DNA of 64,000 nt from Planctomycetaceae bacterium (GTDB lineage Bacteria > Planctomycetota > Planctomycetia > Pirellulales > Lacipirellulaceae), in the NCBI GenBank assembly GCA_002702655.1, contig PABB01000072.1:1-64000 (forward strand), given 5' to 3'. Positions within the stretch are counted from its first letter, which is position 1, and every line of letters begins with the position of its first letter. Shown in pieces: positions 4,744-17,590 of the stretch. Under the pieces are notes generated by a model. That model did no database searches and was not told where the DNA came from. It saw only the letters and a list, made by a program, of their open reading frames with translations. The translations under genes were made by a program, and so were the position numbers.

Positions 4744-5401
4744 GCCCTCCTTTGTACGGTACTTCGCCCGAGGAAGAAATCGCGTAACGCTTTCGGACCG
4801 TCTGCCGAAACGTCGGACGTGGGCGCGCTTCGGGGGGACTGGTCGTCTCACCCATTCGAATCCAGCCAGTCAAGTCACCCCTGCCGCAACAGCGAGCCAT
4901 GGAGGAAGGTCTCTCACCGTTCCGCTGCCACTTTGCGGAGAAACTGCCCTTGTTCAGCGAGCGGGGCAACCTTGATCGGGTCTTTCTTCTCCGATTTGTC
5001 CGCCGTCGCCATTTCAGATCCTCGCCCCGCAAATGCCGCTGATGTGTAAGCACGCCGTCCTGCCTATCATGCGGCTTGATCGAACGTGCGCCCACTTCGT
5101 GACGGATTTCACGAACTCAATTTTCTCATTTTCTTAGAAATTGTGCGTGAACCTTTCCCGGTTTCCGACATCTATACATGTAGCCCGCGACCGACAAGGG
5201 AAATGCGAGCTTAGATTTGAGTAGTGCAGTTTTCGATTTCGTTGTTGGAGAACGAATCATGTTACGGCTGAGTTTCATATGCTCATCGCTCGCGGCGAAT
5301 ATCGCCGGCTTGCCGTTCGCCCATCAGGCGAGCGATAAGCCCGGTTGTGCGCCCGCCGGCGAACAAAGGCGCAGATGACACTTGGCCGAACTCTTTGATG
5401 A

Positions 5402-5410
5402 GCCACAAGG
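5402..5410. repeat. 9-bp direct repeat GCCACAAGG, left copy; the right copy is at 11272-11280
   Basis: Identical 9-mer occurs immediately before the first tRNA-like gene and immediately 5-prime of the terminal tRNA-Asn. Confidence 0.35.
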
Positions 5411-5444
5411 CCCGGTGTCACTGCGACATCGGGCCTTTTTCTTT
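5409..5444 (+). terminator. Rho-independent terminator-like hairpin
   Basis: GGCCCGGTGTCACTGCGACATCGGGCC stem-loop followed by TTTTTCTTT. Confidence 0.5.
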
Positions 5445-5485
5445 GGCCGAGTGCCGATCGAAGAGGCCGACCCCCTACGGAATTT

Positions 5486-5557
5486 GGGCTGGTAGCTGAG
5501 ACGGTCTAGCGGCGGTCTGAAGAACCGCAGACGAGGATTCGAGCGCCTCCCGGCCCA
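5486..5557 (+). tRNA. tRNA-Phe(GAA)
   Basis: Acceptor GGGCTGG/CCGGCCC, D stem GCTG/TAGC, anticodon stem GCGGT/ACCGC with loop CTGAAGA. T-loop TTCGAGC with a noncanonical A53.G61 pair. 4-nt variable loop. Confidence 0.5.
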
Positions 5558-5593
5558 CTCTGCGCACCCGGTGCGCGCACTGCGAAACAACAC

Positions 5594-5666
5594 GGCCCGT
5601 TCGACTTCGGGTGAGGTCATCGGTCTTTCAAGCCGATCAGGTAGGGTTCGACTCCCACACGGGTCA
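5594..5666 (+). tRNA. tRNA-Glu(TTC)
   Basis: Acceptor GGCCCGT/ACGGGTC, anticodon stem TCGGT/GCCGA with loop CTTTCAA. T-loop TTCGACT with only a 3-bp T stem. Confidence 0.45.
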
Positions 5667-5739
5667 CTGCAAATCAGAACGTAGCGAAGTTTGGCATCGC
5701 GCTTGGCTGGGGGCCAAGAGATCGTCGGTCGATTTCTTG

Positions 5740-5788
5740 CTACCGCCCTGCGCTCGGCTGACGTTGAGTCAGCCGTGCTCGGTTGCTC
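5740..5788 (+). ncRNA. conserved-flank hairpin element, copy A
   Basis: Flanks CTACCGCCCTGCGC and GCTCGGTTGCTC are identical to copy B at 8799-8847. Between them is a perfect 7-bp hairpin GGCTGAC/GTCAGCC. The stem sequence differs between copies but the structure is kept. Confidence 0.4.
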
Positions 5789-5812
5789 GTTCTGACTTAC
5801 GCAATGACAACT

Positions 5813-5885
5813 CGGGCGGAGGTGCAGATGGGAGCACGCCGGTTTTGGGAACCGGAGGCTCTGGGTTCGACCCCCAGGCGCCCGA
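5813..5885 (+). tRNA. tRNA-Pro(TGG)
   Basis: C1-G72 first pair typical of bacterial tRNA-Pro. D stem GTGC/GCAC, anticodon stem CCGGT/ACCGG with loop TTTGGGA, T arm CTGGG-TTCGACC-CCCAG. Confidence 0.6.
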
Positions 5886-5903
5886 CTGATACGCAAACCA
5901 CGG

Positions 5904-5973
5904 TAGTCGAGGGCTGGTCGCCCCTACCCGGCTGATAACCGGGTCGCGCTGAGTTCGATTCCCTGGGCTACCA
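5904..5973 (+). pseudogene. degenerate tRNA-like, Ile(GAT)-type anticodon arm, with encoded CCA
   Basis: Anticodon arm CCCGG-CTGATAA-CCGGG and a TTCGATT T-loop, but the acceptor and T stems cannot be paired. Ends in CTACCA. Confidence 0.3.
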
Positions 5974-6057
5974 CTCGCATTCAACTTCACAAGCCACGAG
6001 GAACAACACGATGACGATCGTCCGGCGATGTAAACGGATACGCCCAACCCTGAACTT

Positions 6058-6129
6058 GGGGCTGTGGTGTAGCGGCTGCACAGCGGACTTTTAATCCGCA
6101 CGGTGAGGGTTCAAGTCCTTCCGGCCCCA
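6058..6129 (+). tRNA. tRNA-Lys(TTT)
   Basis: Acceptor GGGGCTG/CGGCCCC, D stem GTGT/GCAC, anticodon stem GCGGA/TCCGC with loop CTTTTAA, T arm GAGGG-TTCAAGT-CCTTC. Confidence 0.6.
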
Positions 6130-6133
6130 CTAT

Positions 6134-6207
6134 TGGCGCGTAGCGCAGTGGTGAGAGCGGCGACATTATAAGTCGCACCCTCGGAGGTTCGATTCCTCCC
6201 GCGCCAA
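6134..6207 (+). tRNA. tRNA-Ile(TAT), rare anticodon
   Basis: Perfect acceptor TGGCGCG/CGCGCCA with U1-A72. Anticodon stem GCGAC/GTCGC with loop ATTATAA, giving anticodon TAT. T arm GGAGG-TTCGATT-CCTCC. 6-nt variable region. Confidence 0.5.
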
Positions 6208-6218
6208 CTGAATAACAC

Positions 6219-6291
6219 GGGACTGAGGTGTTAGCGGCAGCATCCCTGGTTCTTACCCAGGCGGGTGAGGGTTCAAGTCCCTCTGGTCCCA
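6219..6291 (+). tRNA. tRNA-Lys(CTT)
   Basis: Acceptor GGGACTG/TGGTCCC, anticodon stem CCTGG/CCAGG with loop TTCTTAC, T arm GAGGG-TTCAAGT-CCCTC. Confidence 0.6.
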
Positions 6292-6380
6292 CTGAGTTTG
6301 ATGTCGGATGGCAAGCACGAGGCGTGTCGCAGCATTGCTCGGCGTGGATGACTCGTAAGGCGTTCGGCGCGAAAAAGGCA

Positions 6381-6530
6381 CTGGTCGTCTAGCGGCGAAG
6401 ACTCCGCTCTCGTACAGAGCAACTGAGGCCGCTGAGCGATAGCGAGGAGGGAGGCCGAAGGCGGTAGTAAGACACTGCTTCGAGTCCGGCCCGGTGCTCT
6501 GCCGTTCTTTGACAACTTACTTCGCATTGC
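6381..6530 (+). other. degenerate tRNA-like segment carrying repeat copy R1
   Basis: Has a D-arm-like GTCT-AGCGGCGA-AGAC and an anticodon-like GCTCT-CGTACAG-AGAGC. No pairing acceptor or T arm. Contains the 49-nt repeat at 6419-6467. Confidence 0.25.
6419..6467 (+). repeat. 49-nt repeat family copy R1 (GCAACTGAGGCCGCTGAGCGATAGCGAGGAGGGAGGCCGAAGGCGGTAG)
   Basis: 45/49 identical to R2 at 8629-8677. A more diverged copy R3 lies at 8955-9004 inside a long tRNA-like element. Confidence 0.6.
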
Positions 6531-6533
6531 TTT

Positions 6534-6604
6534 GCGCCCATGATGTAGTGGCAGCCTTCCTGCTTGCCATGCAGGGTGTGTCGGTTCGATTCCGGCTGGG
6601 CGCA
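6534..6604 (+). tRNA. tRNA-Gly(GCC)
   Basis: Perfect acceptor GCGCCCA/TGGGCGC, anticodon stem CCTGC/GCAGG with loop TTGCCAT, T arm GTCGG-TTCGATT-CCGGC. Followed by a T6 run. Confidence 0.55.
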
Positions 6605-6610
6605 TTTTTT

Positions 6611-6684
6611 CAGGACGTGGGAAAGCTTGGTATTCCGCGTGCTTCGGGCGCACGAGATCGCTGGTTCAAATCCAGCCGTCCTGA
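6611..6684 (+). tRNA. tRNA-Pro(CGG)
   Basis: Perfect acceptor CAGGACG/CGTCCTG with C1-G72, D stem GGAA/TTCC, anticodon stem CGTGC/GCACG with loop TTCGGGC, T arm GCTGG-TTCAAAT-CCAGC. Confidence 0.65.
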
Positions 6685-6692
6685 CTGACTAT

Positions 6693-6767
6693 TGCGGTGG
6701 GTCCTGTGCTGGTACGGGAAGGCGACTGTTAATCGTCGTGACGCAGGTTCGATTCCTGCCTCCGCAG
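6693..6767 (+). tRNA. tRNA-Asn(GTT)
   Basis: Acceptor TGCGGTG/CTCCGCA with one mismatch. Anticodon stem GGCGA/TCGTC with loop CTGTTAA, T arm GCAGG-TTCGATT-CCTGC. Confidence 0.55.
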
Positions 6768-6779
6768 CTCAAACGGACG

Positions 6780-6865
6780 GGCAAGCCAACGGGCGATGGC
6801 AGCTGCCTCGAAAGCAGTCGAGCGCCGAGCGCGCCTTGTGAGTTCGACTACCTCTCCTTCCGCTT
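6780..6865 (+). pseudogene. tRNA-like remnant
   Basis: Anticodon-like arm CTGC-CTCGAAA-GCAG and a T-loop-like GAGTTCGACTACCTC, but no acceptor pairing. Confidence 0.2.
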
Positions 6866-6868
6866 CAC

Positions 6869-6940
6869 GTGCCCTTGACCGAGCGGCCAAGGTGCCAGTC
6901 TTCCAAACTGGATAGGCGGGTTCGACTCCCGCAGGGCACT
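6869..6940 (+). tRNA. tRNA-Gly(TCC)
   Basis: Perfect acceptor GTGCCCT/AGGGCAC, anticodon stem CCAGT/ACTGG with loop CTTCCAA, T arm GCGGG-TTCGACT-CCCGC. Confidence 0.55.
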
Positions 6941-6949
6941 CTCAAGCTT

Positions 6950-7024
6950 TCCGGGGTCGTCGCTGTTGGTAGTGATGCCTGGCCTTGAACCAGGAGTCCG
7001 TAGGTTCGATTCCTACCCCCGGAA
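6950..7024 (+). tRNA. tRNA-Gln(TTG)-like with C33
   Basis: Perfect acceptor TCCGGGG/CCCCGGA, anticodon stem CCTGG/CCAGG with loop CCTTGAA, T arm GTAGG-TTCGATT-CCTAC. Confidence 0.45.
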
Positions 7025-7080
7025 CTCGCGAACCGTCCCCCACATGGGCTGGTCATGGTTCGACAACGCGAGGAGCTTCC

Positions 7081-7680
7081 ATGACCCAATTCCGTGAGAT
7101 ACGAGCCGATTTTGATCGCGACTCGATCGTCGTTTACCAGGCGTACCGTCCAGCCATCGCTGATGCAGCTTTGGAGGCCGGGCGATTCGTTGCTCCGTTC
7201 TCGTTCGGTCGTATGACTTGGATCAAGCCGTCGTTCCTATGGCTGATGGAGAGAAGCAATTGGGCCCGAAAGTCGGGCCAAGAGCGTATCTTGGCCATCC
7301 GCATAAAACGCAGCGGATGGGATTTGGCGTTAAGTGAGGCAGTGCTGACGTGTTTCGAGCCGAGGACTCATGGATCGATCGACCAATGGCGAGAGAAGTT
7401 TGACGAAGCCCACGTCCACGTGCAGTGGGATCCAGAGCGATCAATTCACGGGAAGAAGCTTGAGCATCGGTCGATTCAGGTCGCTATCGGCAGACAAGTG
7501 ATCAGCGAGTACGTGGAAGACTGGATTATCGAGCTAACGGACCTGACGCCACTTGCCAACAAAATCCGCCGACTGTGCGAGGAGGGCCACGCCGACCGAG
7601 GCAAGAGACTCCTCCCGTCGGAGAAACCATACGAGGTGTCGAATGAAACGGCTACACGACTGGCTATGACCGCCAGCTGA
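7081..7680 (+). CDS. DUF4291-like protein embedded in the tRNA array
   Basis: ATG at 7081 preceded by GAGGAG. The VYQAY and MTWIKPSFLWLM motifs match DUF4291 from memory. Stop TGA at 7678-7680, three nt before the next tRNA. Confidence 0.55.
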   Translation: MTQFREIRADFDRDSIVVYQAYRPAIADAALEAGRFVAPFSFGRMTWIKPSFLWLMERSNWARKSGQERILAIRIKRSGWDLALSEAVLTCFEPRTHGSIDQWREKFDEAHVHVQWDPERSIHGKKLEHRSIQVAIGRQVISEYVEDWIIELTDLTPLANKIRRLCEEGHADRGKRLLPSEKPYEVSNETATRLAMTAS

Positions 7681-7683
7681 CAC

Positions 7684-7754
7684 TGCGGGGTCGCGTAACG
7701 GCAGGACGGGGCGCTCTGAACGCCTTGGTGTTGGTTCGATTCCAGCCCCCGCAG
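7684..7754 (+). tRNA. tRNA-Gln(CTG)
   Basis: Perfect acceptor TGCGGGG/CCCCGCA, anticodon stem GGGCG/CGCCT with loop CTCTGAA, T arm GTTGG-TTCGATT-CCAGC. D arm irregular. Confidence 0.45.
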
Positions 7755-7759
7755 CTTAC

Positions 7760-7844
7760 GGAAGTCATCCGGCTGGATGAGGACGCTGTCTTGAAAACAG
7801 TTGGTCGCACCGGCGACTTGGGGATTCGAGTCCCTCGGCTTCCG
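7760..7844 (+). tRNA. tRNA-Ser(TGA), class II
   Basis: Acceptor GGAAGTC/GGCTTCC, anticodon stem GCTGT/ACAGT with loop CTTGAAA, long variable arm TGGTCGCACCGGCGACTT. T loop ATTCGAGT carries one extra nt. Confidence 0.55.
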
Positions 7845-7857
7845 CTCAACTCAACAC

Positions 7858-7930
7858 GGTCCTGTGGCCTAGCGGCAAAGGCAGCTTCCTTACAAGAAGA
7901 TGATCGGTGGTTCGAGTCCACCCAGGACTA
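7858..7930 (+). tRNA. tRNA-Val(TAC)
   Basis: Acceptor GGTCCTG/CAGGACT, D stem GCCT/AGGC, anticodon loop CTTACAA, T arm GGTGG-TTCGAGT-CCACC. Confidence 0.55.
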
Positions 7931-7940
7931 CTGGATAAGC

Positions 7941-7995
7941 GATGAACGATGAACGCGGAACTATGAACGGAGCGTTCAACGCTCATAGTTCATAG
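7941..7995 (+). other. AT-rich repeat/palindrome element between tRNAs
   Basis: Tandem GATGAAC GATGAAC is followed by nested inverted repeats CTATGAAC-GGAGCG-TTCAA-CGCTC-ATAGTTCATAG. Confidence 0.4.
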
Positions 7996-8010
7996 CTCGT
8001 TGTTCCAATT

Positions 8011-8085
8011 GTCCTCGTGGAGCAGCCTGGAGTGCTCGCCTGCCTGTCACGCAGGAGGACGCGGGTTCAAATCCCGCCGGGGACG
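8011..8085 (+). tRNA. tRNA-Asp(GTC)
   Basis: Acceptor GTCCTCG/CGGGGAC, D stem GAGC/GCTC, anticodon stem CCTGC/GCAGG with loop CTGTCAC, T arm GCGGG-TTCAAAT-CCCGC. Confidence 0.7.
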
Positions 8086-8167
8086 CTTTTGATGGCGGAT
8101 TGCGACATTCGCTATGTGCATGGATCTCAATCGGTTGTCGATTCGTGACTCGCATGCCAATAGGAAA

Positions 8168-8244
8168 GGCACGGTACGCAAACAGGAAAAGCGACGAAGC
8201 TCAAACCTTCGTGACGTTTGCGGGTTCGACTCCCGCCCGTGCTA
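8168..8244 (+). tRNA. tRNA-like with Leu anticodon CAA but class-I-like architecture
   Basis: Acceptor GGCACGG/CCGTGCT, 3-bp D stem CGC/GCG with an 11-nt loop, perfect anticodon stem CGAAG/CTTCG with loop CTCAAAC, 8-nt variable loop, T arm GCGGG-TTCGACT-CCCGC. Confidence 0.4.
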
Positions 8245-8259
8245 CTGACCGAGACACAT

Positions 8260-8358
8260 GCGTCGGCTGGGCACTGGCGAGCCGCAGTATTATTTGGAAA
8301 CGCGGGGCTGTAACCCACCCGCTTCCGAGCTATGCAGGTTCAACTCCTGCCCGGCGCA
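8260..8358 (+). tRNA. 99-nt tRNA-Tyr(GTA)-like with an AT-rich insertion
   Basis: Acceptor GCGTCGG/CCGGCGC pairs, T arm GCAGG-TTCAACT-CCTGC is perfect, and the Tyr-type loop CTGTAAC is present. A 17-nt AT-rich insert AGTATTATTTGGAAACG and an irregular anticodon stem disrupt the fold. Confidence 0.35.
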
Positions 8359-8368
8359 CTGACAACAC

Positions 8369-8439
8369 GGCCCGTTGGTCTAGCGGCAGGATGCGAGACC
8401 CTCAATCTCGCGGCGCGGGTTCGATTCCCGTACGGGCTA
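8369..8439 (+). tRNA. tRNA-Glu(CTC) with C33
   Basis: Acceptor GGCCCGT/ACGGGCT, anticodon stem CGAGA/TCTCG with loop CCCTCAA, T arm GCGGG-TTCGATT-CCCGT. Confidence 0.5.
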
Positions 8440-8446
8440 CTGATGC

Positions 8447-8549
8447 AGCCAAGTGGTGGAATAGGCGGGCACCAACCGTAGGTTGGTCGGCGCGACACTC
8501 AGAATGTCGTGCCACTTGTGGCGTGGGAGTTCGACTCTCCCCTTGGCTA
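8447..8549 (+). tRNA. tRNA-Leu(CAG), class II, with a 17-nt hairpin inserted in the D region
   Basis: Perfect acceptor AGCCAAG/CTTGGCT, anticodon arm CGACA-CTCAGAA-TGTCG, variable arm TGCCACTTGTGGCGT, T arm GGGAG-TTCGACT-CTCCC. An extra hairpin ACCAA-CCGTAGG-TTGGT sits between the D region and the anticodon stem. Confidence 0.45.
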
Positions 8550-8558
8550 CTGATTGAT

Positions 8559-8625
8559 GCGGGTGAGCCAGGCTCAGCCGGGCCTCATAAGCCCGGACCG
8601 TCGGGTGCGACTCCCGGACCCGCTA
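8559..8625 (+). pseudogene. degenerate tRNA-Met(CAT)-like
   Basis: Anticodon arm CCGGGC-CTCATAA-GCCCGG. T-loop TGCGACT, with G in place of the conserved U55. No room for a D arm. Confidence 0.3.
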
Positions 8626-8628
8626 CTA

Positions 8629-8677
8629 GCAACTGAGGCCGCCGAGCGATAGCGAGGATGAAGGCCGAAGGCGGTAG
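8629..8677 (+). repeat. 49-nt repeat family copy R2
   Basis: GCAACTGAGGCCGCCGAGCGATAGCGAGGATGAAGGCCGAAGGCGGTAG, 45/49 identical to R1. Confidence 0.6.
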
Positions 8678-8710
8678 CTCACCAAGAACTGCCGCGCAGC
8701 GACGATTGAT

Positions 8711-8786
8711 GACTGGGTACGCAAACTGGAAAAGCGACCAGGTCGAGAGCCTGGTGATTCTGTGGGTTCGACTCCCACCCTAGTCA
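8711..8786 (+). tRNA. tRNA-like with Leu anticodon GAG, class-I-like, paralogue of 8168-8244
   Basis: Acceptor GACTGGG/CCTAGTC, 3-bp D stem CGC/GCG with an 11-nt loop, anticodon stem CCAGG/CCTGG with loop TCGAGAG (C33), 7-nt variable loop, T arm GTGGG-TTCGACT-CCCAC. Confidence 0.4.
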
Positions 8787-8798
8787 CTTCGTGACAAA

Positions 8799-8847
8799 CT
8801 ACCGCCCTGCGCATACATGCCTTTTGGGCATGTATGCTCGGTTGCTC
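8799..8847 (+). ncRNA. conserved-flank hairpin element, copy B
   Basis: Same flanks as copy A. Perfect 11-bp hairpin GCATACATGCC-TTTTG-GGCATGTATGC. Confidence 0.4.
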
Positions 8848-8852
8848 TGAAT

Positions 8853-8925
8853 GATCCCGTGGTCCAACGGCAACGACGCCTGGGTGACAACCAGGAGAGC
8901 GATGGTTCGACTCCATCCGGGATCA
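8853..8925 (+). tRNA. tRNA-Val(GAC)
   Basis: Perfect acceptor GATCCCG/CGGGATC, anticodon stem CCTGG/CCAGG with loop GTGACAA, T arm GATGG-TTCGACT-CCATC. Confidence 0.6.
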
Positions 8926-8929
8926 CTTT

Positions 8930-9055
8930 GGTCTGTAAGTGTTGCGGCCGCACAAGCAAGGGCCGCCGCCGAGCAGTGCGCAGGAAGGAGGCTGGCCCGC
9001 GGTAGCAGAAAACACATAAGGACGAGGGCCGGGTTCAATTCCCGGACACGGACCT
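8930..9055 (+). other. 126-nt tRNA-like element with acceptor and T arm but a roughly 50-nt internal insertion (repeat copy R3)
   Basis: Acceptor GGTCTGT/ACGGACC pairs and T arm CCGGG-TTCAATT-CCCGG is intact. The interior carries the palindrome TTGCGGCCGCAA and an R-family repeat at 8955-9004. Confidence 0.3.
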
Positions 9056-9119
9056 TCAACCGAGCACGCTTGCCCAGAAGGCAAGCGAGCGCAGGGCGAA
9101 AGCAACTGACGAAAATCGC

Positions 9120-9192
9120 GGGCTGGCATGTTCCAAGGGGGCGACTGACTCTTGCAAGGTCGGTGCGAAGGGTTCGATTCCCTTCCGGTCCA
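9120..9192 (+). tRNA. tRNA-Ala(TGC)-like
   Basis: Acceptor GGGCTGG/CCGGTCC with 2 GU pairs, anticodon stem TGACT/GGTCG with loop CTTGCAA, T arm AAGGG-TTCGATT-CCCTT. D stem poor. Confidence 0.4.
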
Positions 9193-9202
9193 CTCACGAC
9201 GA

Positions 9203-9273
9203 GGGCTCATGGTCCAACGGGACGACACCGGCTCGGCAGGTCGGAGATCTGGGTTCGATTCCCAGTGGGTCCA
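9203..9273 (+). tRNA. tRNA-Ala(GGC)-like with C33
   Basis: Acceptor GGGCTCA/TGGGTCC, anticodon stem CCGGC/GTCGG with loop TCGGCAG, T arm CTGGG-TTCGATT-CCCAG. Confidence 0.45.
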
Positions 9274-9277
9274 CTCA

Positions 9278-9568
9278 TCAATCAGGCCAGATGCCGGCGT
9301 CAACGGCGGCTTGGCGATTGTGACCGCAGTCGACTTTGGCGCCATCTATCAGGACTTCAGGATAGTCACCCCGTTCAACATACAGTTGAGTATTGCCATC
9401 AGTCTCAACCATAGCGAACCAAGGCCCTTGATCTGTGTCAGAAACCATCGTTGAAGCGACAAGTTTTTCCTTGGGAAGCATGGTGTAGTCTTCGCCCCAG
9501 GGCTCGATCCATACGATGTGAGGACGAGGACGATCGTTGTAGATCTCGATTGAGGAGACTCGCTGCAT
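9278..9568 (-). CDS. hypothetical small protein (low-GC cargo ORF inside the array)
   Basis: ORF sits in a roughly 50% GC stretch between tRNAs. Start chosen at MQRVSS. No clear SD. Confidence 0.2.
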   Translation of the reverse strand: MQRVSSIEIYNDRPRPHIVWIEPWGEDYTMLPKEKLVASTMVSDTDQGPWFAMVETDGNTQLYVERGDYPEVLIDGAKVDCGHNRQAAVDAGIWPD

Positions 9569-9589
9569 GGCACCAGGATAGCGACTTCG

Positions 9590-9700
9590 AAACACGGAAG
9601 GTAGCCGGATACGGCTCGCCGGGCCAGTTTGCTCGGGCCGTGCGACTCCACAAGGGTCATGTGGGATCAAATCGGGCACCGACGCGCAGCGTTGGTCTAC
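9590..9700 (+). pseudogene. degenerate tRNA-like remnants
   Basis: TGCGACTCC T-loop variant and ATCAAAT loop fragments without a complete cloverleaf. Confidence 0.2.
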
Positions 9701-9729
9701 CTTCCGCTCGCGTTGATCGAATACGACAC

Positions 9730-9801
9730 AGCTCGATGGTGAAACGGACATCATGTCTCGCTTCTAACGAGAGGTTCCAGGTTCGAATCCTGGTCGAGCT
9801 G
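9730..9801 (+). tRNA. tRNA-Arg(TCT)
   Basis: Perfect acceptor AGCTCGA/TCGAGCT, D stem GTGA/TCAT, anticodon stem TCTCG/CGAGA with loop CTTCTAA, T arm CCAGG-TTCGAAT-CCTGG. Confidence 0.65.
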
Positions 9802-9812
9802 CTGAAGAGTAA

Positions 9813-9897
9813 GGAAGGGCAACCCGATTGGCGACGGGACCCGGTTGGAAGCCGGTTGAGCTTCATGGCCTTGAGGGTTCGACTCCCTCTCCTTCCG
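9813..9897 (+). tRNA. tRNA-Ser(GGA), class II
   Basis: Acceptor GGAAGGG/TCCTTCC, anticodon stem CCGG/CCGG with loop TTGGAAG, roughly 15-nt variable arm, T arm GAGGG-TTCGACT-CCCTC. Confidence 0.5.
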
Positions 9898-10519
9898 CTG
9901 GTTTGGTACGACCCTTTCCTGAGCGACTGTGGAAAACACGGAATGGGACAGATGCTACCAAAGAAATCCCAACAGAGATTAACCATATCAATAGCCAGGT
10001 ATGCCACCCGGAGTCCAGGAATCGCCCCCAATAGTCGATAACGCCGTGCTCACGCGACCAGCTTGCATCAGCAATGATGAGCGATGCAGTCACACAACTT
10101 GCCGCCCAACAGCCCAGGAACAACCACCACCCGGACGCCAGAACGCAGATCGCTAGAGGAAGTAGCAAGTTCAAAAGGCAACCAACGACCCAGCCGCCAA
10201 ATCCAAAACCGCGTATGAAAGGGCCAGCCCAATATACGGCCGAGGTCGCAACCAGGAATGCAACTACCGTCGAAACCGACTTTCCAGTCTCCGTTCCTGC
10301 AAACAGCTTTCTCTTGAAACTAACCGATCGAGGATGACACAAGATAGCAATCGCGAGTGCCGGCACAAACCCGATTGCAGAAAACACTGCCGCGATCCAA
10401 GGCGCGTCAGCAACACCTCCCCGAATCCATGACATCGCCACTGAAGTAAACAACCCAAATGCCGCTGCGCACAAGACCGCTTCCGAAGGAGAAAACGACT
10501 TTTGGTTCGAGTTGGCCAT
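9863..10519 (-). CDS. hypothetical multi-pass membrane protein (low-GC cargo ORF)
   Basis: 5-6 predicted TM helices. Roughly 50% GC, against above 60% for the surroundings. The ATG at 10517-10519 is preferred over the upstream TTG. The 3-prime 35 nt overlap tRNA-Ser on the opposite strand. Confidence 0.35.
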   Translation of the reverse strand: MANSNQKSFSPSEAVLCAAAFGLFTSVAMSWIRGGVADAPWIAAVFSAIGFVPALAIAILCHPRSVSFKRKLFAGTETGKSVSTVVAFLVATSAVYWAGPFIRGFGFGGWVVGCLLNLLLPLAICVLASGWWLFLGCWAASCVTASLIIADASWSREHGVIDYWGRFLDSGWHTWLLIWLISVGISLVASVPFRVFHSRSGKGRTKPAEGEGVEPSRP

Positions 10520-10551
10520 GAATCGCAAGTTACCACACAAATGAAGTCTGT

Positions 10552-10617
10552 GGTGTACACGGTACGCACGCCTGCCTGTGAAGCAGGAGGTACGGGTTCG
10601 ATTCCCGTCGGATACCC
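10552..10617 (+). pseudogene. tRNA-His(GTG)-like, degenerate
   Basis: Anticodon arm CCTGC-CTGTGAA-GCAGG and T arm ACGGG-TTCGATT-CCCGT, but a truncated D arm and a poorly pairing acceptor. Confidence 0.35.
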
Positions 10618-10622
10618 CTTAT

Positions 10623-10692
10623 GCGAGTGTGCTCCTGGGAGAGCAGTCAGCCTCCAAAACTGACGAACAGGGTTCGAATCCTTGCGCTCGTG
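10623..10692 (+). tRNA. tRNA-Trp(CCA)
   Basis: Acceptor GCGAGTG/CGCTCGT with 2 GU pairs. Anticodon loop CTCCAAA is closed by GTCAG/CTGAC plus a C.A pair. T arm CAGGG-TTCGAAT-CCTTG. Confidence 0.5.
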
Positions 10693-10696
10693 CTTT

Positions 10697-10784
10697 GCCG
10701 ACGTGGCCGAATAGCTAGGCGCCGGTTTTGCCCCGTCCCTAGATAAAGCAGCGGTTGATGCTGGTGCGACTCCAGTCGTCGACC
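10697..10784 (+). pseudogene. class-II-like tRNA-like with G55 T-loop variant
   Basis: Acceptor GCCGACG/CGTCGAC pairs 6/7. T arm GCTGG-TGCGACT-CCAGT. Anticodon region ambiguous. Confidence 0.3.
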
Positions 10785-10788
10785 CTAC

Positions 10789-10852
10789 ATCTCGATGGTG
10801 TAACGGACCGCACGGGGCTCTCCAAGTCCTGGTTCGATTCCAGGTCGAGATG
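10789..10852 (+). pseudogene. truncated tRNA-like, 64 nt
   Basis: Perfect acceptor ATCTCGA/TCGAGAT, D arm and T arm intact, CTCCAAG loop, but the 3-prime half of the anticodon stem and the variable loop are missing. Confidence 0.3.
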
Positions 10853-10860
10853 CTGCGAAC

Positions 10861-10932
10861 AGCCCGTGAGTGTGCCGGATAGCATGTCAGCTTCCGAAGC
10901 TGTTGGACCAGGTTCGATTCCTGGACGGGCTA
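10861..10932 (+). tRNA. tRNA-Arg(CCG)
   Basis: Perfect acceptor AGCCCGT/ACGGGCT, anticodon stem CAGC/GCTG with loop TTCCGAA, T arm CCAGG-TTCGATT-CCTGG. Confidence 0.6.
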
Positions 10933-10936
10933 CTAC

Positions 10937-11009
10937 GCCTTGCGAGTGTGACGGACGAGCACGGCAGACTTCGAATCTGCAAGACGGGGTTCGATTCCCT
11001 GGCGAGGTA
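10937..11009 (+). tRNA. tRNA-Arg(TCG)
   Basis: Acceptor GCCTTGC/GCGAGGT, D stem GTGT/GCAC, perfect anticodon stem GCAGA/TCTGC with loop CTTCGAA, T arm CGGGG-TTCGATT-CCCTG. Confidence 0.65.
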
Positions 11010-11013
11010 CTTC

Positions 11014-11084
11014 AGCCTGTGAGTGTGTTGGATGCACGCGACCGTGCGAAGGTCGTAGGCCAGGTTCGATTCCTGGACGGGCTG
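11014..11084 (+). tRNA. tRNA-Arg(GCG)
   Basis: Acceptor AGCCTGT/ACGGGCT, D stem GTGT/GCAC, perfect anticodon stem CGACC/GGTCG with loop GTGCGAA, T arm CCAGG-TTCGATT-CCTGG. Confidence 0.6.
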
Positions 11085-11091
11085 CTAATTT

Positions 11092-11162
11092 GACGCTGGA
11101 GCCAGATGGCCAGGCAGCCGGCTGCAACCCGGCCAAAGTGGGTTCGACTCCCACCGGCGTCT
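11092..11162 (+). tRNA. tRNA-Cys(GCA)
   Basis: Acceptor GACGCTG/CGGCGTC, perfect anticodon stem GCCGG/CCGGC with loop CTGCAAC, T arm GTGGG-TTCGACT-CCCAC. Confidence 0.6.
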
Positions 11163-11274
11163 CTTTGTAAGCGAGGTTTTGAAAGCGCTGGGCCAGCGGC
11201 GCCCTCGGCCCCTTTCACCAGGTTGGCCGGGTGTGTTCCGTGGATGGATTGTTACGAAGGCGCGCGAGACCGCC

Positions 11275-11348
11275 ACAAGGTTAGCTCAGTTGGTTAGAGC
11301 ACCAGGCTGTTAACCTGGCTGTCACGGGTTCGACTCCCGTACCACACC
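11275..11348 (+). tRNA. tRNA-Asn(GTT) with canonical body but non-pairing acceptor stem
   Basis: Canonical D arm TAGCTCAGTTGGTTAGAGC, anticodon arm CCAGG-CTGTTAA-CCTGG and T arm ACGGG-TTCGACT-CCCGT. The 5-prime acceptor ACAAGGT pairs with the 3-prime ACCACAC over only 3 of 7 positions. The 9-bp direct repeat abuts its 5-prime end. Confidence 0.5.
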
Positions 11349-11807
11349 GCAGGCTGAAAACCTGCTCCCTACGTGAGGGACCGACGCGGAAGCGTCACCA
11401 TGAAGCCCGAGGGTAGCGGACGGTCGATTGGTCTGCCGCGCGTGAGTGCGAGGCTTTGGCCTAGGCAAGCTCGTAGCGGCAGCACAGACCGGCGCTATGC
11501 AGTGCGTGGATACCGCTTTCACGCACGCTGTGTCCGAAGGTTGTGGAAGCCAAGTGTCGCCCAACGAGCAATGCTCGTGACGGCCTCACCGGTGAAAGCA
11601 ACTGGGAGATACAGCGAACATGACCGCTCAAATTGCACTCCGCGCACGGATGTGTGACCAGGCGAACCAGTTCGCTGCCCGAGGGCCTTTTTCCGTGAAC
11701 CAAGTACAGGCAACCGTCGTCCTGCACTTCCTATACACACCGTTTCTGTATTCGGGGCGGGCAGCCGACCGCCAACCTATCTCGGCTGGAAAGGAGGTAC
11801 ATGCCTC

Positions 11808-12914
11808 ATGTTGTTTTTCAAGAAGGTGAAGATCAAGAGTTACGAGGTCGGCCTGTACTTCCGTGACGGCGAGTTCAAGCGATTGCTGACCACCGGTCGA
11901 CACTGGTTGTTCGATCCGCTGTGGAAGGTCCGCGTCGACGTCGTGTCGCAGCGTGATCCGTGGCTGGTCCACGACAAGCTGGACGTGATCGTCAAGAGCG
12001 GCGCCCTGACGGGTCTGGCCAAGGTCGTCGACCTCAAGGACCACGAGCGGGCGCTCGTGTGGATCGAGGGCCGCTTCAGCCATGTTCTGCCGCCGGGACT
12101 GTACGCCTACTGGACCGGCTTCAAGGACGTGCGGGTCGCGGTGATCAACGCCCGTGAAGTTCGGCTGCAGCATGCGGACTTCAAGGCGATCGTCCGTTCG
12201 CCGCACGCTGCGCAGGTGCTCGACATCTGCACGGTCGAGCGGAACCACGTGGGCGTTGCCTTCGTCGACGGCGAGTACGTCGAGACGCTCACCCCGGGCC
12301 AGTACGCCTGGTGGCGTGGCGTCGCCGACGCGAAGGTGGTCGAGGTCGACCTACGCGAGCAGGCCTTGGACGTGGCGGGTCAGGAAATCATGACCGCCGA
12401 TAAGGTCACGCTCCGCATGAACGCCTTGGTCAACTACCGCGTGACCGACGCTCGCAAGGCTGTGATGGTCAGCGACGGCGCGACGCAGTCGCTGTACCGC
12501 GAGGCTCAGCTGGCGTTGCGTGCCGTGGTTGGGATTCGCGACTTGGACTCGTTCCTGACGGACAAGGACGCCGTCGCCAGCGAGTTCGCGGAGCAGGTCA
12601 GCCGACGGGCGGGTGAGTTGGGTCTGGAAGTGGTTTCGGTAGGTGTCCGCGACGTCATCTTGCCGGGCGACATGAAGGACCTGATGAACAAGGTCACCGA
12701 GGCCAAGAAGGCCGCCGAGGCGAACCTGATCTCGCGACGCGAGGAGACGGCGGCCATGCGTAGCCAGGCGAACACCGCCAAGCTGCTCGCCGACAACCCG
12801 ACGCTGATGCGTCTCCGGGAACTGGAGGTCCTGGAGAAGGTCGCCACGAGCGGCAAGCTCAACGTCGTCTTGGGCGAGAAGGGCCTCGCCGATCGCGTGG
12901 TCAACCTGTTGTAG
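11808..12914 (+). CDS. SPFH/band 7 domain protein (stomatin/slipin-like)
   Basis: ATG at 11808 preceded by AAGGAGG. SPFH core with a C-terminal coiled coil. Followed by a strong terminator. Confidence 0.8.
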   Translation: MLFFKKVKIKSYEVGLYFRDGEFKRLLTTGRHWLFDPLWKVRVDVVSQRDPWLVHDKLDVIVKSGALTGLAKVVDLKDHERALVWIEGRFSHVLPPGLYAYWTGFKDVRVAVINAREVRLQHADFKAIVRSPHAAQVLDICTVERNHVGVAFVDGEYVETLTPGQYAWWRGVADAKVVEVDLREQALDVAGQEIMTADKVTLRMNALVNYRVTDARKAVMVSDGATQSLYREAQLALRAVVGIRDLDSFLTDKDAVASEFAEQVSRRAGELGLEVVSVGVRDVILPGDMKDLMNKVTEAKKAAEANLISRREETAAMRSQANTAKLLADNPTLMRLRELEVLEKVATSGKLNVVLGEKGLADRVVNLL

Positions 12915-12937
12915 CCAATCCCCTTGTTGATGCGGGA

Positions 12938-12972
12938 CCGGAGCCCGGGAGTGATCTCGGGCTCCGGTTTTC
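12938..12972 (+). terminator. Rho-independent terminator
   Basis: CCGGAGCCCGGGAGTGATCTCGGGCTCCGG followed by TTTT. Confidence 0.7.
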
Positions 12973-13147
12973 CGTGCGCGAACCTTCGTTGCCATGCCGT
13001 GTCATTCCCGCGGCACAACCGCAACCCCACCTTCAGCTATGAACACGTTCGAATCAAGCCAAACATCCTCGTCAACCTCGTCAGACGCTTCGGCGTCGGG
13101 CCGTAGGACAGCGCTTGCGTATGGCTGATTAATTTCAGAACGCTAGC

Positions 13148-13186
13148 AAAGCCCGCCCGGCTCACGAGCCTGGCGGGCTTTTTTCG
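13148..13186 (+). terminator. Rho-independent terminator-like hairpin
   Basis: AGCCCGCC...GGCGGGCT stem followed by TTTTTT. Confidence 0.55.
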
Positions 13187-13347
13187 TTTCTGGAGATGGG
13201 GAACGGCTTCGTTTGCCAACAACCCCTGTCGAGTTGCGACCGCTGCCCTGGCGCTGCATGGGCACAAAAAGGCCGTTGAGGCTGCTCACCTCTCCGGCTG
13301 GCCAGCGGTCGCGACGCAATTCCTTGTAGGAAAGGAGTGATAGAGCG

Positions 13348-14529
13348 ATGGTTCAAAAGATCCACGTCAACGTCGGCACGATCGGTCACATCGACCACGG
13401 GAAGACGACGCTTACCACCGCGAACTTGCGCGTGCAGTCCGGGCGCGGCCTGGCCGAGTATAAGTCCTACGCCGAGGTCGCCAAGGGCGGCGTCACCCGC
13501 GACAAGAACAAGACCGTCACGGTCATCACTTCGCACGTGCAGTACGAGACGGAGTCGCGCAGCTACGCGCACGTCGACTGCCCGGGCCACGCGGACTACA
13601 TCAAGAACATGATCACCGGCGCCGCCCAGATGGACGGGGCCGTGCTCTTGGTGTCGGCCGTGGACGGCCCGATGCCGCAGACGCGGGAGCATATCCTGCT
13701 GGCGCGGCAGGTCGGCGTGCCTCACCTGGTCGTCTTCATGAACAAGTGCGACCTGGTCGAGGACCCGGAGTTGCTCGACCTCGTGGAGCTGGAGATGCGC
13801 GAGATGCTCACGCACTACGGGTTCCCAGGAGAGGACGTTCCGTTCGTGCGGGGCTCCGCGCTCTTGGCGCACGACAACCCGGCGGACGCGGAGTCGAGTC
13901 GTTGCATCGGCGAGTTGCTGGACGCGCTCGACACGTACGTGCCTGCCCCCAAGCGGGCGGTCGACAAGCCGTTCCGGATGTCGATCGAGAACGTGTTCTC
14001 GATCGAGGGGCGGGGCACCGTTGTGACCGGCGTGGTCGATCAAGGCCGGATCGCTCCCGGCGACTCGGTCGACATCGTCGGCCTGGCGGACCAGCCGCGG
14101 ACGGTCGTGTGCACGCAGCTCAAGACGTTTCAGGACGTCTTGGAGTCCGCCGAGGCGGGCGACAACGTCGGTTGTTTGCTCCGTGGCGTCGGCCGCGATG
14201 AGGTCGAGCGCGGGCAGGTGATTGTCGCTCCCGGATCGCTCGCGCCGCACACACGGTTCGAGTCGGAGGTGTACGTGCTCGACCAAGGAGAGGGCGTCCG
14301 GCACACGCCGTTCATAAACGGTTACACGCCGCAGTTCTTCTTCCGCACGACGGACGTGACCGGAGAGGTGAGCCTGCTGGGAGGCGCCGAGGTCGCGATG
14401 CCGGGCGACGGCATCAAGCTCGGTGTCCGGCTGCAGAAGCCAATCGCCCTGGATGCTGGCTCGCGTTTCGCGATCCGCGAAGGGAACCGCACGGTTGGTT
14501 CCGGTGTCGTGACGTGTATTATTGAGTAG
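13348..14529 (+). CDS. tuf: elongation factor Tu paralogue with a divergent switch I
   Basis: 393 aa with G1 [24 protein letters not shown] and the EF-Tu C-terminal [10 protein letters not shown]. The switch I/effector region is [15 protein letters not shown] where canonical EF-Tu has [19 protein letters not shown] SD. Not in a str/S10 ribosomal context. Confidence 0.85.
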
Positions 14530-14589
14530 CTTGAACGCCGGAGGCCGGGAGCTATCCCGGCCTCCGGCCTGTTTCAGTGGAGAGAGTTC

Positions 14590-15150
14590 ATGGCCAACGA
14601 GCGCATTTACCTCGCCCTCGGCGATAGTATGAGCATTGATGACTACACCGGCGTGAAGGGCGGCGGTGCGGTCAATCAGTTCTTTCGCTCCTTGGGCAGC
14701 GACTGGTCGCTCGACGACCGTACGTTTGACGGTTGTCAGATGGCCGGTGTCCCGAGAGACGGGGTCGGCGATATCGTCACGCTGACTATCGGCGGCAATG
14801 ACCTGTTGTGGAACAAAGAAGAGTACCTCCGTGAAGGAGTTGCCGACTTCGCGGCGGAGCATCTCGCCCTGCTGCGGGCGCTCCGGAAGCAGAACCCGAC
14901 CTCGCTGCTGATCGTGGGAGACATCTACGGCCCCGCAGCGCCCCTTACGGACGCCGAGGCGCATGGTCTGGCGCACGCGAATCAAGCGATCCACGAGAAC
15001 TGCCGCGAGGTGGGGGCCCGACTCGCCACGATTCACGAGGCATTCCAGGGCCGCGAAGATTCGCTGTTGTGTCTTGGAATCGAGCCGACTCTTAAAGGGG
15101 CTGAAGTGATTGCAGGGCTGTTTGCGGATGCAATGACACGCGAGCGGTAG
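14590..15150 (+). CDS. SGNH/GDSL hydrolase family protein
   Basis: GDSMS block I and GGNDL block III. GGAGAG SD. Confidence 0.75.
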   Translation: MANERIYLALGDSMSIDDYTGVKGGGAVNQFFRSLGSDWSLDDRTFDGCQMAGVPRDGVGDIVTLTIGGNDLLWNKEEYLREGVADFAAEHLALLRALRKQNPTSLLIVGDIYGPAAPLTDAEAHGLAHANQAIHENCREVGARLATIHEAFQGREDSLLCLGIEPTLKGAEVIAGLFADAMTRER

Positions 15151-15199
15151 TTCGTCGTTGCCTTGCTGCGAGAGTGGCTTTGGTGCTGCCTTTCGAGTC

Positions 15200-16833: not shown

Positions 16834-17155
16834 ATACTGGCGATGACAGCAATTCTAAACGCTCTCCCGGTTCTTGCGAACCTTTCGTGGCACGCCGCGG
16901 TCTGTCTGGCGGTAAATGTTCCAAGCTGATCTGGAGGACAGACTCGTGTACGCCCAACTCTCCACTCTTGCCCCGCTGAGCCCGCGCTGCTGCTAGGCTC
17001 GGCCGCTGCGCCTTTCGTGGCGTCGGTTCGGTCTGCCTTCGCGGGCTCCTCTTGCCGCTGATTGTTCTTGATCAGTTCGGCCGGCGCGGTGTTGCGCCGG
17101 TGCTTCTTAATCAGGCAAGGGTCCCAAGCTGGGGCCACGTACCACGAGGATGGCT

Positions 17156-17590
17156 ATGGCGCTTGATAAGCGTACGCGCGAGCAGATGCTCGCAATGTGT
17201 GGAGAGATCCACGAGGACGACGGGGTCGACCCCCGCGAATTCTTCAAGTCGGGACGTGGTCCCCGCAAGCAAGACCACAAAGCGCGGCAGCTCTGCCGCC
17301 AGGCGGCGGCGACCTTGGACCAGGTACTCTCTGGAGAGACGGGCGACGATCGACTGGCCTGCCTGCGGGTCGTCTCGGTGCAGCCAGCACCGGACGCATC
17401 GCGGCTGCTGGTCACAGTTGTGGCGACCTGCGCTGCAGTGGACTTCTGTCGAGATGCGACAGCAGCCCACCTGCAAGGGTCCGCAGGGCGATTGAGGACC
17501 GCGGTCGCGGCGGCGATCACGCGTCGCAAGGCGCCGACGCTGGCGTTCGTCTTGCTCGGCCCCGATGGAGAGGAGGCCCAACATGGTTGA
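17156..17590 (+). CDS. hypothetical small protein, translationally coupled to rtcB
   Basis: ORF ends 7 nt into the rtcB start region and has plausible composition. No recognised domain. Confidence 0.4.
   Translation: MALDKRTREQMLAMCGEIHEDDGVDPREFFKSGRGPRKQDHKARQLCRQAAATLDQVLSGETGDDRLACLRVVSVQPAPDASRLLVTVVATCAAVDFCRDATAAHLQGSAGRLRTAVAAAITRRKAPTLAFVLLGPDGEEAQHG

Follow-up and report, generated by a model that had tools for sequence, protein, structure and literature searches.

Fam1, a family of short hairpin repeats with conserved flanks and variable stems in Planctomycetota, and its possible mobility

Repetitive extragenic palindromic sequences (REPs) are defined by a GT[AG]G tetranucleotide 0–2 nt 5′ of the foot of their stem (PMC6006769, PMC3733652). 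REP subfamilies with complementary stem changes, and mosaic clusters that reiterate flanking DNA, have been described in genomes that include Planctomycetes, in which GTAG-tagged palindromes are also reported (Di Nocera 2013, PMC3733652). Class 3 TnpA_Y1 proteins, associated with CnGA-footed hairpins, are reported mainly from Planctomycetes, Acidobacteria and Proteobacteria; in Planctomycetes, atypical hairpins that have a 5′ CnGA foot reportedly lie on both sides of the class 3 HUH-Y1 genes (PMC6006769). Long tRNA arrays (L-arrays) are likewise already known from Planctomycetes (PMC8421152). Here we describe a repeat of about 50 nt, which we call Fam1, that is present in three copies (A, B and C) in a tRNA array on contig PABB01000072.1, from a marine Planctomycetaceae metagenome-assembled genome (MAG). 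The 64-kb stretch that was analysed is called the window throughout, and related loci are given L numbers.

On balance, and with modest confidence, we favour reading Fam1 as a ~50-bp non-coding, palindromic, REP/MITE-like miniature mobile repeat of Planctomycetota that acts at the DNA level (MITE stands for miniature inverted-repeat transposable element). We base this on family membership, stem covariation, restriction to one phylum, filled and empty sites, 3′-end duplications, the occurrence of both orientations and the lack of a G·U bias; from these we infer that the repeat would be moved by an enzyme acting in trans.

A repeat family with fixed flanks and changing stems

Three copies of Fam1 lie within the array (5486–11163, 29 or more tRNA genes by ARAGORN):
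5739–5788, plus strand: copy A, from the sequence, repeat family D18, fold and covariance model (74.1 bits, E 9e-16)
8798–8847, plus strand: copy B, from the sequence, D18, fold and covariance model (65.3 bits, E 1e-13)
9054–9103, minus strand: copy C, from repeats I1 and I2, fold and covariance model (60.6 bits, E 1.5e-12)

A first-pass annotation of this DNA had described A and B as a 49-nt pair with exactly shared flanks and different, perfectly paired hairpins, and direct reading confirmed both the description and the coordinates. Copy A, preceded by a G, reads CTACCGCCCTGCGC-TC-GGCTGAC-GTTGA-GTCAGCC-GT-GCTCGGTTGCTC at 5740–5788 and forms a T·T-footed hairpin with the core TCGGCTGAC GTTGA GTCAGCCGT. 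Copy B reads CTACCGCCCTGC-GCATACATGCC-TTTTG-GGCATGTATGC-TCGGTTGCTC at 8799–8847, with the same flanks and the core ATACATGCC TTTTG GGCATGTAT, and its outer G–C stem pairs are supplied by the flank bases themselves; a core related to it, ACACATGCC..GGCATGTGT, is carried by a metagenome copy. The exact 14-mer of the flank occurs at two sites only in the 64 kb, those of A and B. Copy C, which the annotation had overlooked, listing A and B only, reads CTTTCGCCCTGCGC - TCGCTTGCC TTCTG GGCAAGCGT - GCTCGGTTGaag. Its outer ends are mutated, its inner flanks are as in A and B, and its core, also 23 nt long, has a third stem, CGCTTGCC/GGCAAGCG; C is an old copy. The stems of the three copies differ at most positions, while the flanks around the 23-nt cores of A and B are identical. 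Folds of the window copies are stable (z −2.1 to −3.8), and a covariance model built from relatives found no further copy in the window. The unit as a whole consists of fixed, asymmetric flanks that resemble single strands, 5′ CTACCGCC-CTGC and 3′ T-CGGTTGCT, around a 10–13-bp hairpin whose foot is a conserved T·T or A–T.

The genome-wide search for the flank motifs that the first-pass annotation had proposed revealed copies across Planctomycetota genomes and metagenome contigs. One genome per species was scanned with the pattern CGCCCTGCGC-N17-29-GCTCGGTTG. About 55 matches had a perfect-hairpin core of 20–24 nt with CTAC directly 5′ and CT directly 3′, bases that lie outside the search pattern yet are present at the real matches; the remaining matches came from many phyla and were due to chance. 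The real matches were in Planctomycetaceae, Lacipirellulaceae, Pirellulales, Lacipirellula, Thalassoglobus neptunius and one MAG labelled Myxococcales, with at least 7–8 copies in single MAGs. A stricter scan of metagenomes found copies on at least 120 contigs, and the scans combined gave at least about 180–200 copies with 129 distinct cores. All copies were intergenic or in tRNA genes, and 114 of 183 had no tRNA nearby. The IMG/VR viral contigs held no real copy, their 7 matches being attributed to chance because all lacked CTAC and the hairpin, and the plasmid database gave no real match. A search of the full-text literature, covering the flank sequences and tRNA arrays and REPs in Planctomycetes, found no description of such repeats. 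Fam1 is a family of small DNA repeats that form hairpins; it has apparently not been described before and is almost confined to Planctomycetota.

Taken alone, the three window copies, the only ones in 64 kb and all within the tRNA array, would suit a recent local duplication or a chance similarity inside the array, the outcome that the first-pass annotation had named as fatal to its own proposal should no further copies exist. More than 180 copies elsewhere, 129 distinct cores, covariance-model E values of 1e-12 to 1e-16 and stems that mostly differ between A, B and C rule that outcome out, and we give this explanation practically no credence.

The stems vary under a strong pairing constraint. 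Among 34 distinct copies, both partners vary at nine stem pairs and pairing holds in 93.5% of cells, compared with 77% in shuffles and 23–40% with slid partners, and none of 500 shuffles reached the observed score; the annotation's proposal that the structure is kept while the stem is replaced is borne out by these covarying pairs. Across the 129 cores, length is 22–23 nt in 101 (range 20–25), the eight main stem positions are 94% Watson–Crick paired, and the stem foot is T·T in 90 and A–T in 23. The stems are not random, several positions keeping preferred pairs, and the cores accordingly form lineages (GGCTGAC, CGCTTGCC, GGGCGAC-TTCGG, ACATGCC) that recur in different genomes.

Covariation of this strength, together with stable folding, would also be expected of a functional structured RNA cotranscribed with tRNAs or mRNAs, whether a processing or insulating hairpin, a 3′-end stabiliser, a protein-binding motif or an attenuator. 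Mismatches are informative here because a transcribed, selected RNA should tolerate G·U and not A·C. In 1028 pairs from the 129 cores we counted 16 G·U and 17 A·C, a balance that points to the DNA palindrome as what is constrained, or else to the lack of any strand preference, and argues against a selected RNA strand. A cmscan search of 5000–12000 against Rfam 15 (E ≤ 1) returned tRNA-type matches only, none of them at A, B or C or at the sister unit Fam2 described below. Neither a terminator with a U-tract nor a promoter consensus is present at copies A, B and C, where the 3′ flank is GCUCGGUUGCUC, and with no terminator-like site at any of the three the annotation's attenuator idea finds no support. 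What survives of its functional RNA or DNA hairpin is the structural constraint, seen in the nine covarying pairs; a functional RNA or attenuator is unsupported.

Insertion into and beside tRNA genes

Two further features belong with A and B:
5675–5796, plus strand: disrupted tRNA-Pro(GGG) gene hosting copy A, read from the sequence and absent from the ARAGORN calls
8783–8795, plus strand: small hairpin GTCAC-TTC-GTGAC, formed by the tRNA-Leu(gag) 3′ end and the first bases of the B insertion

Copy B is a clean insertion of ~58 nt between tRNA-Leu(gag) and tRNA-Val(gac), starting 11 nt past tRNA-Leu(gag), where the orthologous array L106 has a 6-nt spacer. The hairpin at 8783–8795 matches ‘hp1’, a variable small hairpin found just 5′ of many copies, which covaries among the Pirellulales copies and is also present in the spacers of tRNA-proximal copies. 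The tRNA-Pro(GGG) gene has an acceptor stem (CAGAACG/CGTTCTG plus A), a D arm and an anticodon arm (CTTGG-CTGGGGG-CCAAG), and copy A replaces the 3′ part of its T-arm; the closing helix is present in the minimum-free-energy fold (z = −4.9). The L053 homologue of this host gene, which is tRNA-Pro-like, also carries Fam1 but retains a T arm after the copy. Both A and B precede a tRNA, as the first-pass annotation had remarked, namely tRNA-Pro(tgg), at 5813, and tRNA-Val(gac), at 8853, but the position is incidental. What recurs consistently is that copies are inserted at the T-arm of a tRNA, either 3′ of it or into it.

Many insertions come with a duplicated tRNA end. In L106, Fam1 follows tRNA-Gln(ttg) and is itself followed by a second GGTTCAAATCCTTCTCCCCGAA segment, at a site that is empty in L053. 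This second segment and its flank are the original 3′ end and flank of the uninterrupted L053 tRNA-Gln(ttg) gene, and the 3′ end of the functional L106 tRNA differs slightly from that of the original. Thirty-two copies lie on the strand of a tRNA and 7–60 nt 3′ of it; behind 19 of them the T-loop-to-3′ end of the tRNA in question is repeated, the duplicate always beginning (C/G)T-GGTTCRA, in at least ten tRNA species and at stand-alone genes as well. At some loci the series of tRNA 3′ end, spacer and Fam1 is reiterated in tandem. Tandem arrays of two to three units past one tRNA gene, with periods of 94–118 nt, were seen in L149, L172 and L177 (Ga0114931 contigs) and in L113/L247.

Integration of tRNA-targeting tyrosine integrases in the T-loop classically gives such a 3′-end signature. 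The duplications, and the L106 site with its displaced original end, therefore lend support to a different account, in which Fam1 would be the arm-proximal recombination site, folded and attC-like or att-arm-like, of integrase-mobilised elements that integrate in the tRNA T-loop and bring a replacement 3′ end, the tRNA–spacer–Fam1–fragment modules being remnants like cis-mobilizable elements (CIMEs) or trans-mobilised mini-cassettes. The attC-like architecture of the unit (outer stem, asymmetric internal loop, mismatched inner stem and variable terminal hairpin) suits this account too. Attachment-site scars or miniature integrative elements of this kind are nevertheless difficult to reconcile with inserts of just 60–120 bp, with no integrase gene in the 8–14 kb covered at any locus, and with the matching 3′ ends that a generic element would need for ten or more tRNA species. 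The many copies away from tRNAs, the unmatched attC consensus and both orientations within one array speak against it as well, and we consider this account unlikely.

Other copies bear on movement and on orientation. The core of copy A recurs almost unchanged in L105 between different tRNAs, a non-orthologous site, which argues for copying to new sites. Minus-strand copies orthologous in position to C lie between tRNA-Val(gac) and tRNA-Ala in L106 and L053; all three share the derived change CTAC>CTTT, and their stems differ in a compensated way. Near tRNAs, 57 of 69 copies are sense, 25 of them 10–40 nt past the tRNA 3′ end, and 12, copy C included, are antisense. The Pirellulales copies sit in a mosaic of CCCCCTCCCC, a small covarying hairpin, Fam1 and CTCCCaTCCCC-loop-GGGGAGGGG, and most of those that could be resolved lie 30–75 nt beyond the stop codon of a convergent gene, antisense to its mRNA, as placed by gene calls filtered on third-position GC content, stop-to-stop open reading frames (ORFs) being uninformative in these high-GC loci. 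Being mostly sense near tRNAs and mostly antisense in Pirellulales, Fam1 has no constant orientation relative to transcription.

These features would fit the following mechanism. A trans-acting, structure-specific DNA enzyme would recognise the folded strand together with flank bases and copy the unit to new sites, with the shape and length of the hairpin mattering and its stem sequence not. Preferred targets would be found on the 5′ side of stem-loops already in place, the tRNA T-arm above all and sometimes the anticodon loop, and in Pirellulales the GC-rich CCCCTCCCC/GGGGAGGGG hairpins; insertion would often leave a direct repeat of the tRNA's T-loop-to-3′ end, and non-essential tRNA arrays would tolerate and accumulate insertions. 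An enzyme reading flanks and hairpin shape would explain why flanks are identical across orders while stems drift in a compensated way, and tolerance by dispensable arrays would explain the broken tRNA genes around A and around the Fam2 copies D and F.

Sister unit, candidate enzymes and the surrounding array

A second unit, Fam2, is also present in the array:
6418–6467, plus strand: Fam2 copy D, repeat D16, AGCAACTGAG-GCC..GGCC-GAAGGCGGTAG
8628–8677, plus strand: Fam2 copy E, D16, 94% identical to D
8955–9005, plus strand: Fam2-like copy F, inside a tRNA-like gene at 8930–9054

Copy D was inserted after position 37 of a tRNA-Thr(CGT) gene (6378–6498) that is now degenerate and has intact orthologues in L106 and L083. 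Copy E begins directly after an unannotated tRNA-Met(CAT)-like gene (about 8559–8626) plus the dinucleotide CT. The host gene of copy F has the acceptor GGTCTGT/ACGGACC and the T arm CCGGGTTCAATTCCCGG, and the same site in L106 and L053 holds a minus-strand Fam1, so that Fam2 and reversed Fam1 occupy the same position. The Fam2 consensus opens with AGCAAC(U)GAG, continues with a variable 7-bp stem that encloses the loop GCCGAsCGAUUAGsGAGGAUGAA and closes with GCGGUAG, ~50 nt in all; the stem covaries, as does a 2-bp mini-stem within the conserved 22-nt loop. Reverse-complemented, the termini of Fam2 are those of Fam1, and the Fam1 model matches Fam2 weakly on the opposite strand. We found 20 distinct Fam2 copies, all in tRNA arrays, with loci outside the window in L053, L059, L083, L105, L115, L132, L133, L161, L192, L203, L221, L224, L238 and L241. 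A copy often starts where the 5′ strand of the T-stem ends in a truncated tRNA, or else behind a tRNA 3′ end and the dinucleotide CT. In seven cases Fam1 follows within 0–20 nt, and the composites have 10-bp terminal inverted repeats, AGCAACYGAG ... CTCRGTTGCT; these pairs look like two-ended versions of the element. Fam2 has no Rfam match and could itself be a small structured RNA. A hammerhead or other small ribozyme was considered for it and rejected, CUGA not being conserved and no Rfam family matching.

Prompted by an RtcB RNA ligase gene at 17565–18716, a split tRNA or a tRNA intron of the archaeal bulge-helix-bulge type was also considered for the inserts, and group I introns were considered as well. 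Copy D does lie after position 37, but the T stem of its host is degenerate, and at L053 Leu(gag), L105 and L241 removal of the insert leaves no anticodon-stem 3′ strand. As excision restores no tRNA, the inserts are not introns; Fam1 and Fam2 inserts are in addition far below the size of group I introns.

Several observations count against a mobile DNA repeat. No transposase, RAYT (REP-associated tyrosine transposase) or integrase gene adjoins any copy in the 8–14 kb loci, a HuH...Y motif scan of about 250 loci gave 0 matches, and the ORF families that recur near copies are array genes only (HNH endonuclease, Band_7 and the 23S-rRNA intervening-sequence protein); a single IS4/5 transposase was found among the clustered neighbour ORFs. 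The direct repeats, at 20–30 bp and variable, are unlike the products of a fixed-stagger transposase or of duplication-free IS200/IS605 insertion. Compared with REPs, the Fam1 tag is 5′ CTAC at 10 nt from the stem, where canonical GTAG abuts the stem, and adjacent Fam1 pairs are mostly direct (42 versus 17 inverted), unlike the inverted doublets of REPINs. Exact-flank search patterns inflate the apparent flank conservation. In copy C, which is old and has orthologues, the stem has stayed compensated, which may mean a local function, and the prevalence of the tRNA strand, in the 57 of 69 Fam1 copies and in all 19 Fam2 matches of a first regex screen, may alternatively be due to a role as RNA.

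Compensated stems can arise without selection when one arm of a DNA palindrome serves as template to correct the other, and the stem of copy C is thus no proof of function. It nonetheless sides with the cotranscribed structured RNA introduced above, as do the strand counts, the position of many sense copies shortly past a tRNA 3′ end and the conserved 22-nt loop of Fam2. Against such an RNA stand the near-equal G·U and A·C counts and the lack of a U-tract, promoter or Rfam match, the antisense placement of C, of 11 other tRNA-proximal copies and of most Pirellulales copies next to genes, the interruption and inactivation of tRNA genes that insert removal does not restore, and the same unit at non-orthologous sites. 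A functional RNA seems to us rather doubtful, and we retain the mobile DNA repeat as the preferred reading.

The Fam1 minus strand reads AGCAA-CCGA-[GC·A·CGG...] and one Fam2 subfamily AGCAA-CTGA-[stem], from which we propose, speculatively, a class 3 HUH-Y1 (TnpA_Y1/RAYT-like) protein as partner. An HNH endonuclease gene lies near tRNA-His in five genome-derived sister arrays (L053, L076, L105, L106 and L115) and four metagenome loci. It is possible, though we put this forward only tentatively, that Fam1 and Fam2 are the two ends, or solo recognition hairpins, of an unrecognised hairpin-dependent, single-stranded-DNA mobile system of Planctomycetota that homes to tRNA T-loops and other stem-loops, regenerates the tRNA by 3′-end duplication and is driven in trans by an enzyme such as a class 3 HUH-Y1 protein or the HNH endonuclease of the sister arrays, or else that Fam2 is a new structured RNA or ribozyme travelling along. 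The targeting logic of such a system would be distinct from those of REP/RAYT, IS200/IS605, integrons and tRNA-integrases.

The array that holds these units contains additional tRNA-like sequences that ARAGORN misses, recognised by T-arm repeats and weak Rfam tRNA or tRNA-Sec matches:
6775–6861: tRNA or tRNA-like gene
7760–7843: tRNA or tRNA-like gene
8250–8360: tRNA or tRNA-like gene
8441–8551: tRNA or tRNA-like gene
8559–8626: tRNA or tRNA-like gene
9110–9196: tRNA or tRNA-like gene
10790–10854: tRNA or tRNA-like gene
11279–11343: tRNA or tRNA-like gene

Among the missed genes are the tRNA-Met(CAT)-like gene, which has a 3-nt D loop, and Ser-like class II genes, and several array genes are degenerate; the array clearly has more than 29 tRNA-type genes. 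Because of insertions, tRNA predictors miss many array genes, and counts of functional tRNAs in such arrays are therefore unreliable.

Within the array, tRNA-Gln(ttg) and tRNA-Gln(ctg) also flank a DUF4291 gene (7081–7680, 199 aa, Pfam E 4e-69), in place of which sister arrays have the HNH endonuclease gene near tRNA-His (L053 5835–6674, L106 6412–7026 and others). Exact matches to the DUF4291 protein came from the same strain only. Located at 7944–8005, with tRNA-Val(tac) on one side and tRNA-Asp on the other, a 26-nt imperfect inverted repeat, GAACGATGAACGCGGAACTATGAACG / CGCTCATAGTTCATAGCTCGTTGTTC, has a higher AT content than the sequence around it and is unrelated to Fam1. At 5407–5437, ~50 nt upstream of the array's first tRNA, there is a strong terminator-like hairpin with a 13-bp stem followed by TTTCTTT. 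Genes for PF05635 23S-rRNA-intervening-sequence proteins, which are four-helix bundles, occur in or beside planctomycete arrays (L053 832–1305, L248 946–1365, L080 2327–2710), the L053 gene being bracketed by GGCTTGAGG/CCTCAAGCC repeats; L053 3380–4282 encodes an IS4/5 DDE transposase within the array.

Immediately downstream of the array, 11808–18716 carries a gene set in the style of translation and RNA repair:
11808–12914: Band_7/SPFH gene
13348–14529: EF-Tu paralogue
also in this set: GDSL lipase and RbfA-like ORF
17565–18716: RtcB RNA ligase

Band_7 adjoins the arrays of L097, L105 and L137 too. Defence-like genes lie nearby at 19849–21981 and 25025–30538, an AAA_5 (McrB-like) ATPase and a 1837-aa protein with DUF4011, superfamily-1 helicase, MTES_1575 restriction endonuclease and WGR domains. 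A known phage origin of the array was considered and rejected, as megablast against 50,697 phage records gave only an 80% tRNA-Ser match; the genes flanking the array are chromosomal or defence-type. The contig is chromosomal and comes from TARA Oceans assemblies, being carried by ERZ17090024, ERZ2782993 and ERR1726863, and its asparagine synthase is identical to an NCBI protein of a ‘Planctomycetaceae bacterium’ MAG.

Comparison with known systems

If our preferred reading is correct, Fam1 would be a phylum-wide, structure-defined DNA repeat family in Planctomycetota, whose mobile DNA is little studied. Its conserved flanks and near-free stems would amount to a mutational scan, made by nature, of the requirements of an enzyme that recognises hairpins, it would have a clear part in eroding the long auxiliary tRNA arrays, the biology of which is under debate, and it would offer a candidate DNA partner for orphan class 3 HUH-Y1 proteins.

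REPs and REPINs with their RAYT (TnpA_REP) proteins share much with Fam1. A genome carries several to many copies of these short extragenic palindromes, which are GC-rich, have a conserved unpaired tag beside a stem-loop and are presumably recognised as folded single strands, and they show complementary stem changes between subfamilies, sites just past stop codons and mosaics with other hairpins. They are described as 20–40-bp imperfect palindromes, extragenic and repeated, a description that the 50-nt Fam1 unit with its 10–13-bp stem also fits. Fam1 is longer, however, and has on either side some 10 conserved bases that are unpaired or mismatched; its stems are far more variable (129 cores in about 200 copies), it is tied to tRNA T-arms and to tRNA 3′-end duplication, and no RAYT gene was found in the loci examined. 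The GTAG of Fam1 falls at the 3′ end of the minus strand, and by this tag placement and its mostly direct pairs the family lies outside the REP definition.

The class 3 HUH-Y1 ‘REPtron-like’ systems (Quentin et al. 2018, PMC6006769) are reported from a taxonomic range that fits Fam1, and their CnGA foot resembles the C(C/T)GA that the Fam1 minus strand and one Fam2 subfamily carry directly 5′ of the foot of the stem, a likeness drawn from the published text description, with no class 3 gene in the loci examined. As a lead, class 3 may fit better than REP.

Integron attC sites, like Fam1, are defined by structure and not by sequence: the ends are conserved, the internal loop is asymmetric, some bases are mismatched or extrahelical, and the terminal hairpin varies. 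The attC sites act as folded single-stranded DNA. Fam1 differs in having no R′′/R′ consensus (RYYYAAC/GTTRRRY), its right end being GTTGCTC with no AAC at the left, no IntI or cassette organisation, both orientations in one array and a unit shorter than any attC. Integrative elements of tRNA genes, and CIMEs, share the direct repeat of the T-loop-to-3′ end and the functional tRNA regenerated upstream; Fam1 is set apart by its small inserts, the absence of an integrase from the loci, the many tRNAs targeted and the many copies off tRNAs. Palindrome-associated transposable elements (PATEs) derived from IS200/IS605 insertion sequences, and bacterial MITEs such as Correia, RUP and Nezha, are likewise non-autonomous, hairpin-forming and inserted into or next to structured sequence, and are mobilised in trans as is proposed here for Fam1, but no related insertion sequence was identified for Fam1, its duplications are variable and long, and its ends are not simple terminal inverted repeats except in the Fam2–Fam1 composites. 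Small palindromic mobile repeats are, as a kind, already known; what is distinctive for Fam1 is the combination of asymmetric conserved flanks, very free stems, T-arm targeting with 3′-end duplication and an inverted sister unit.

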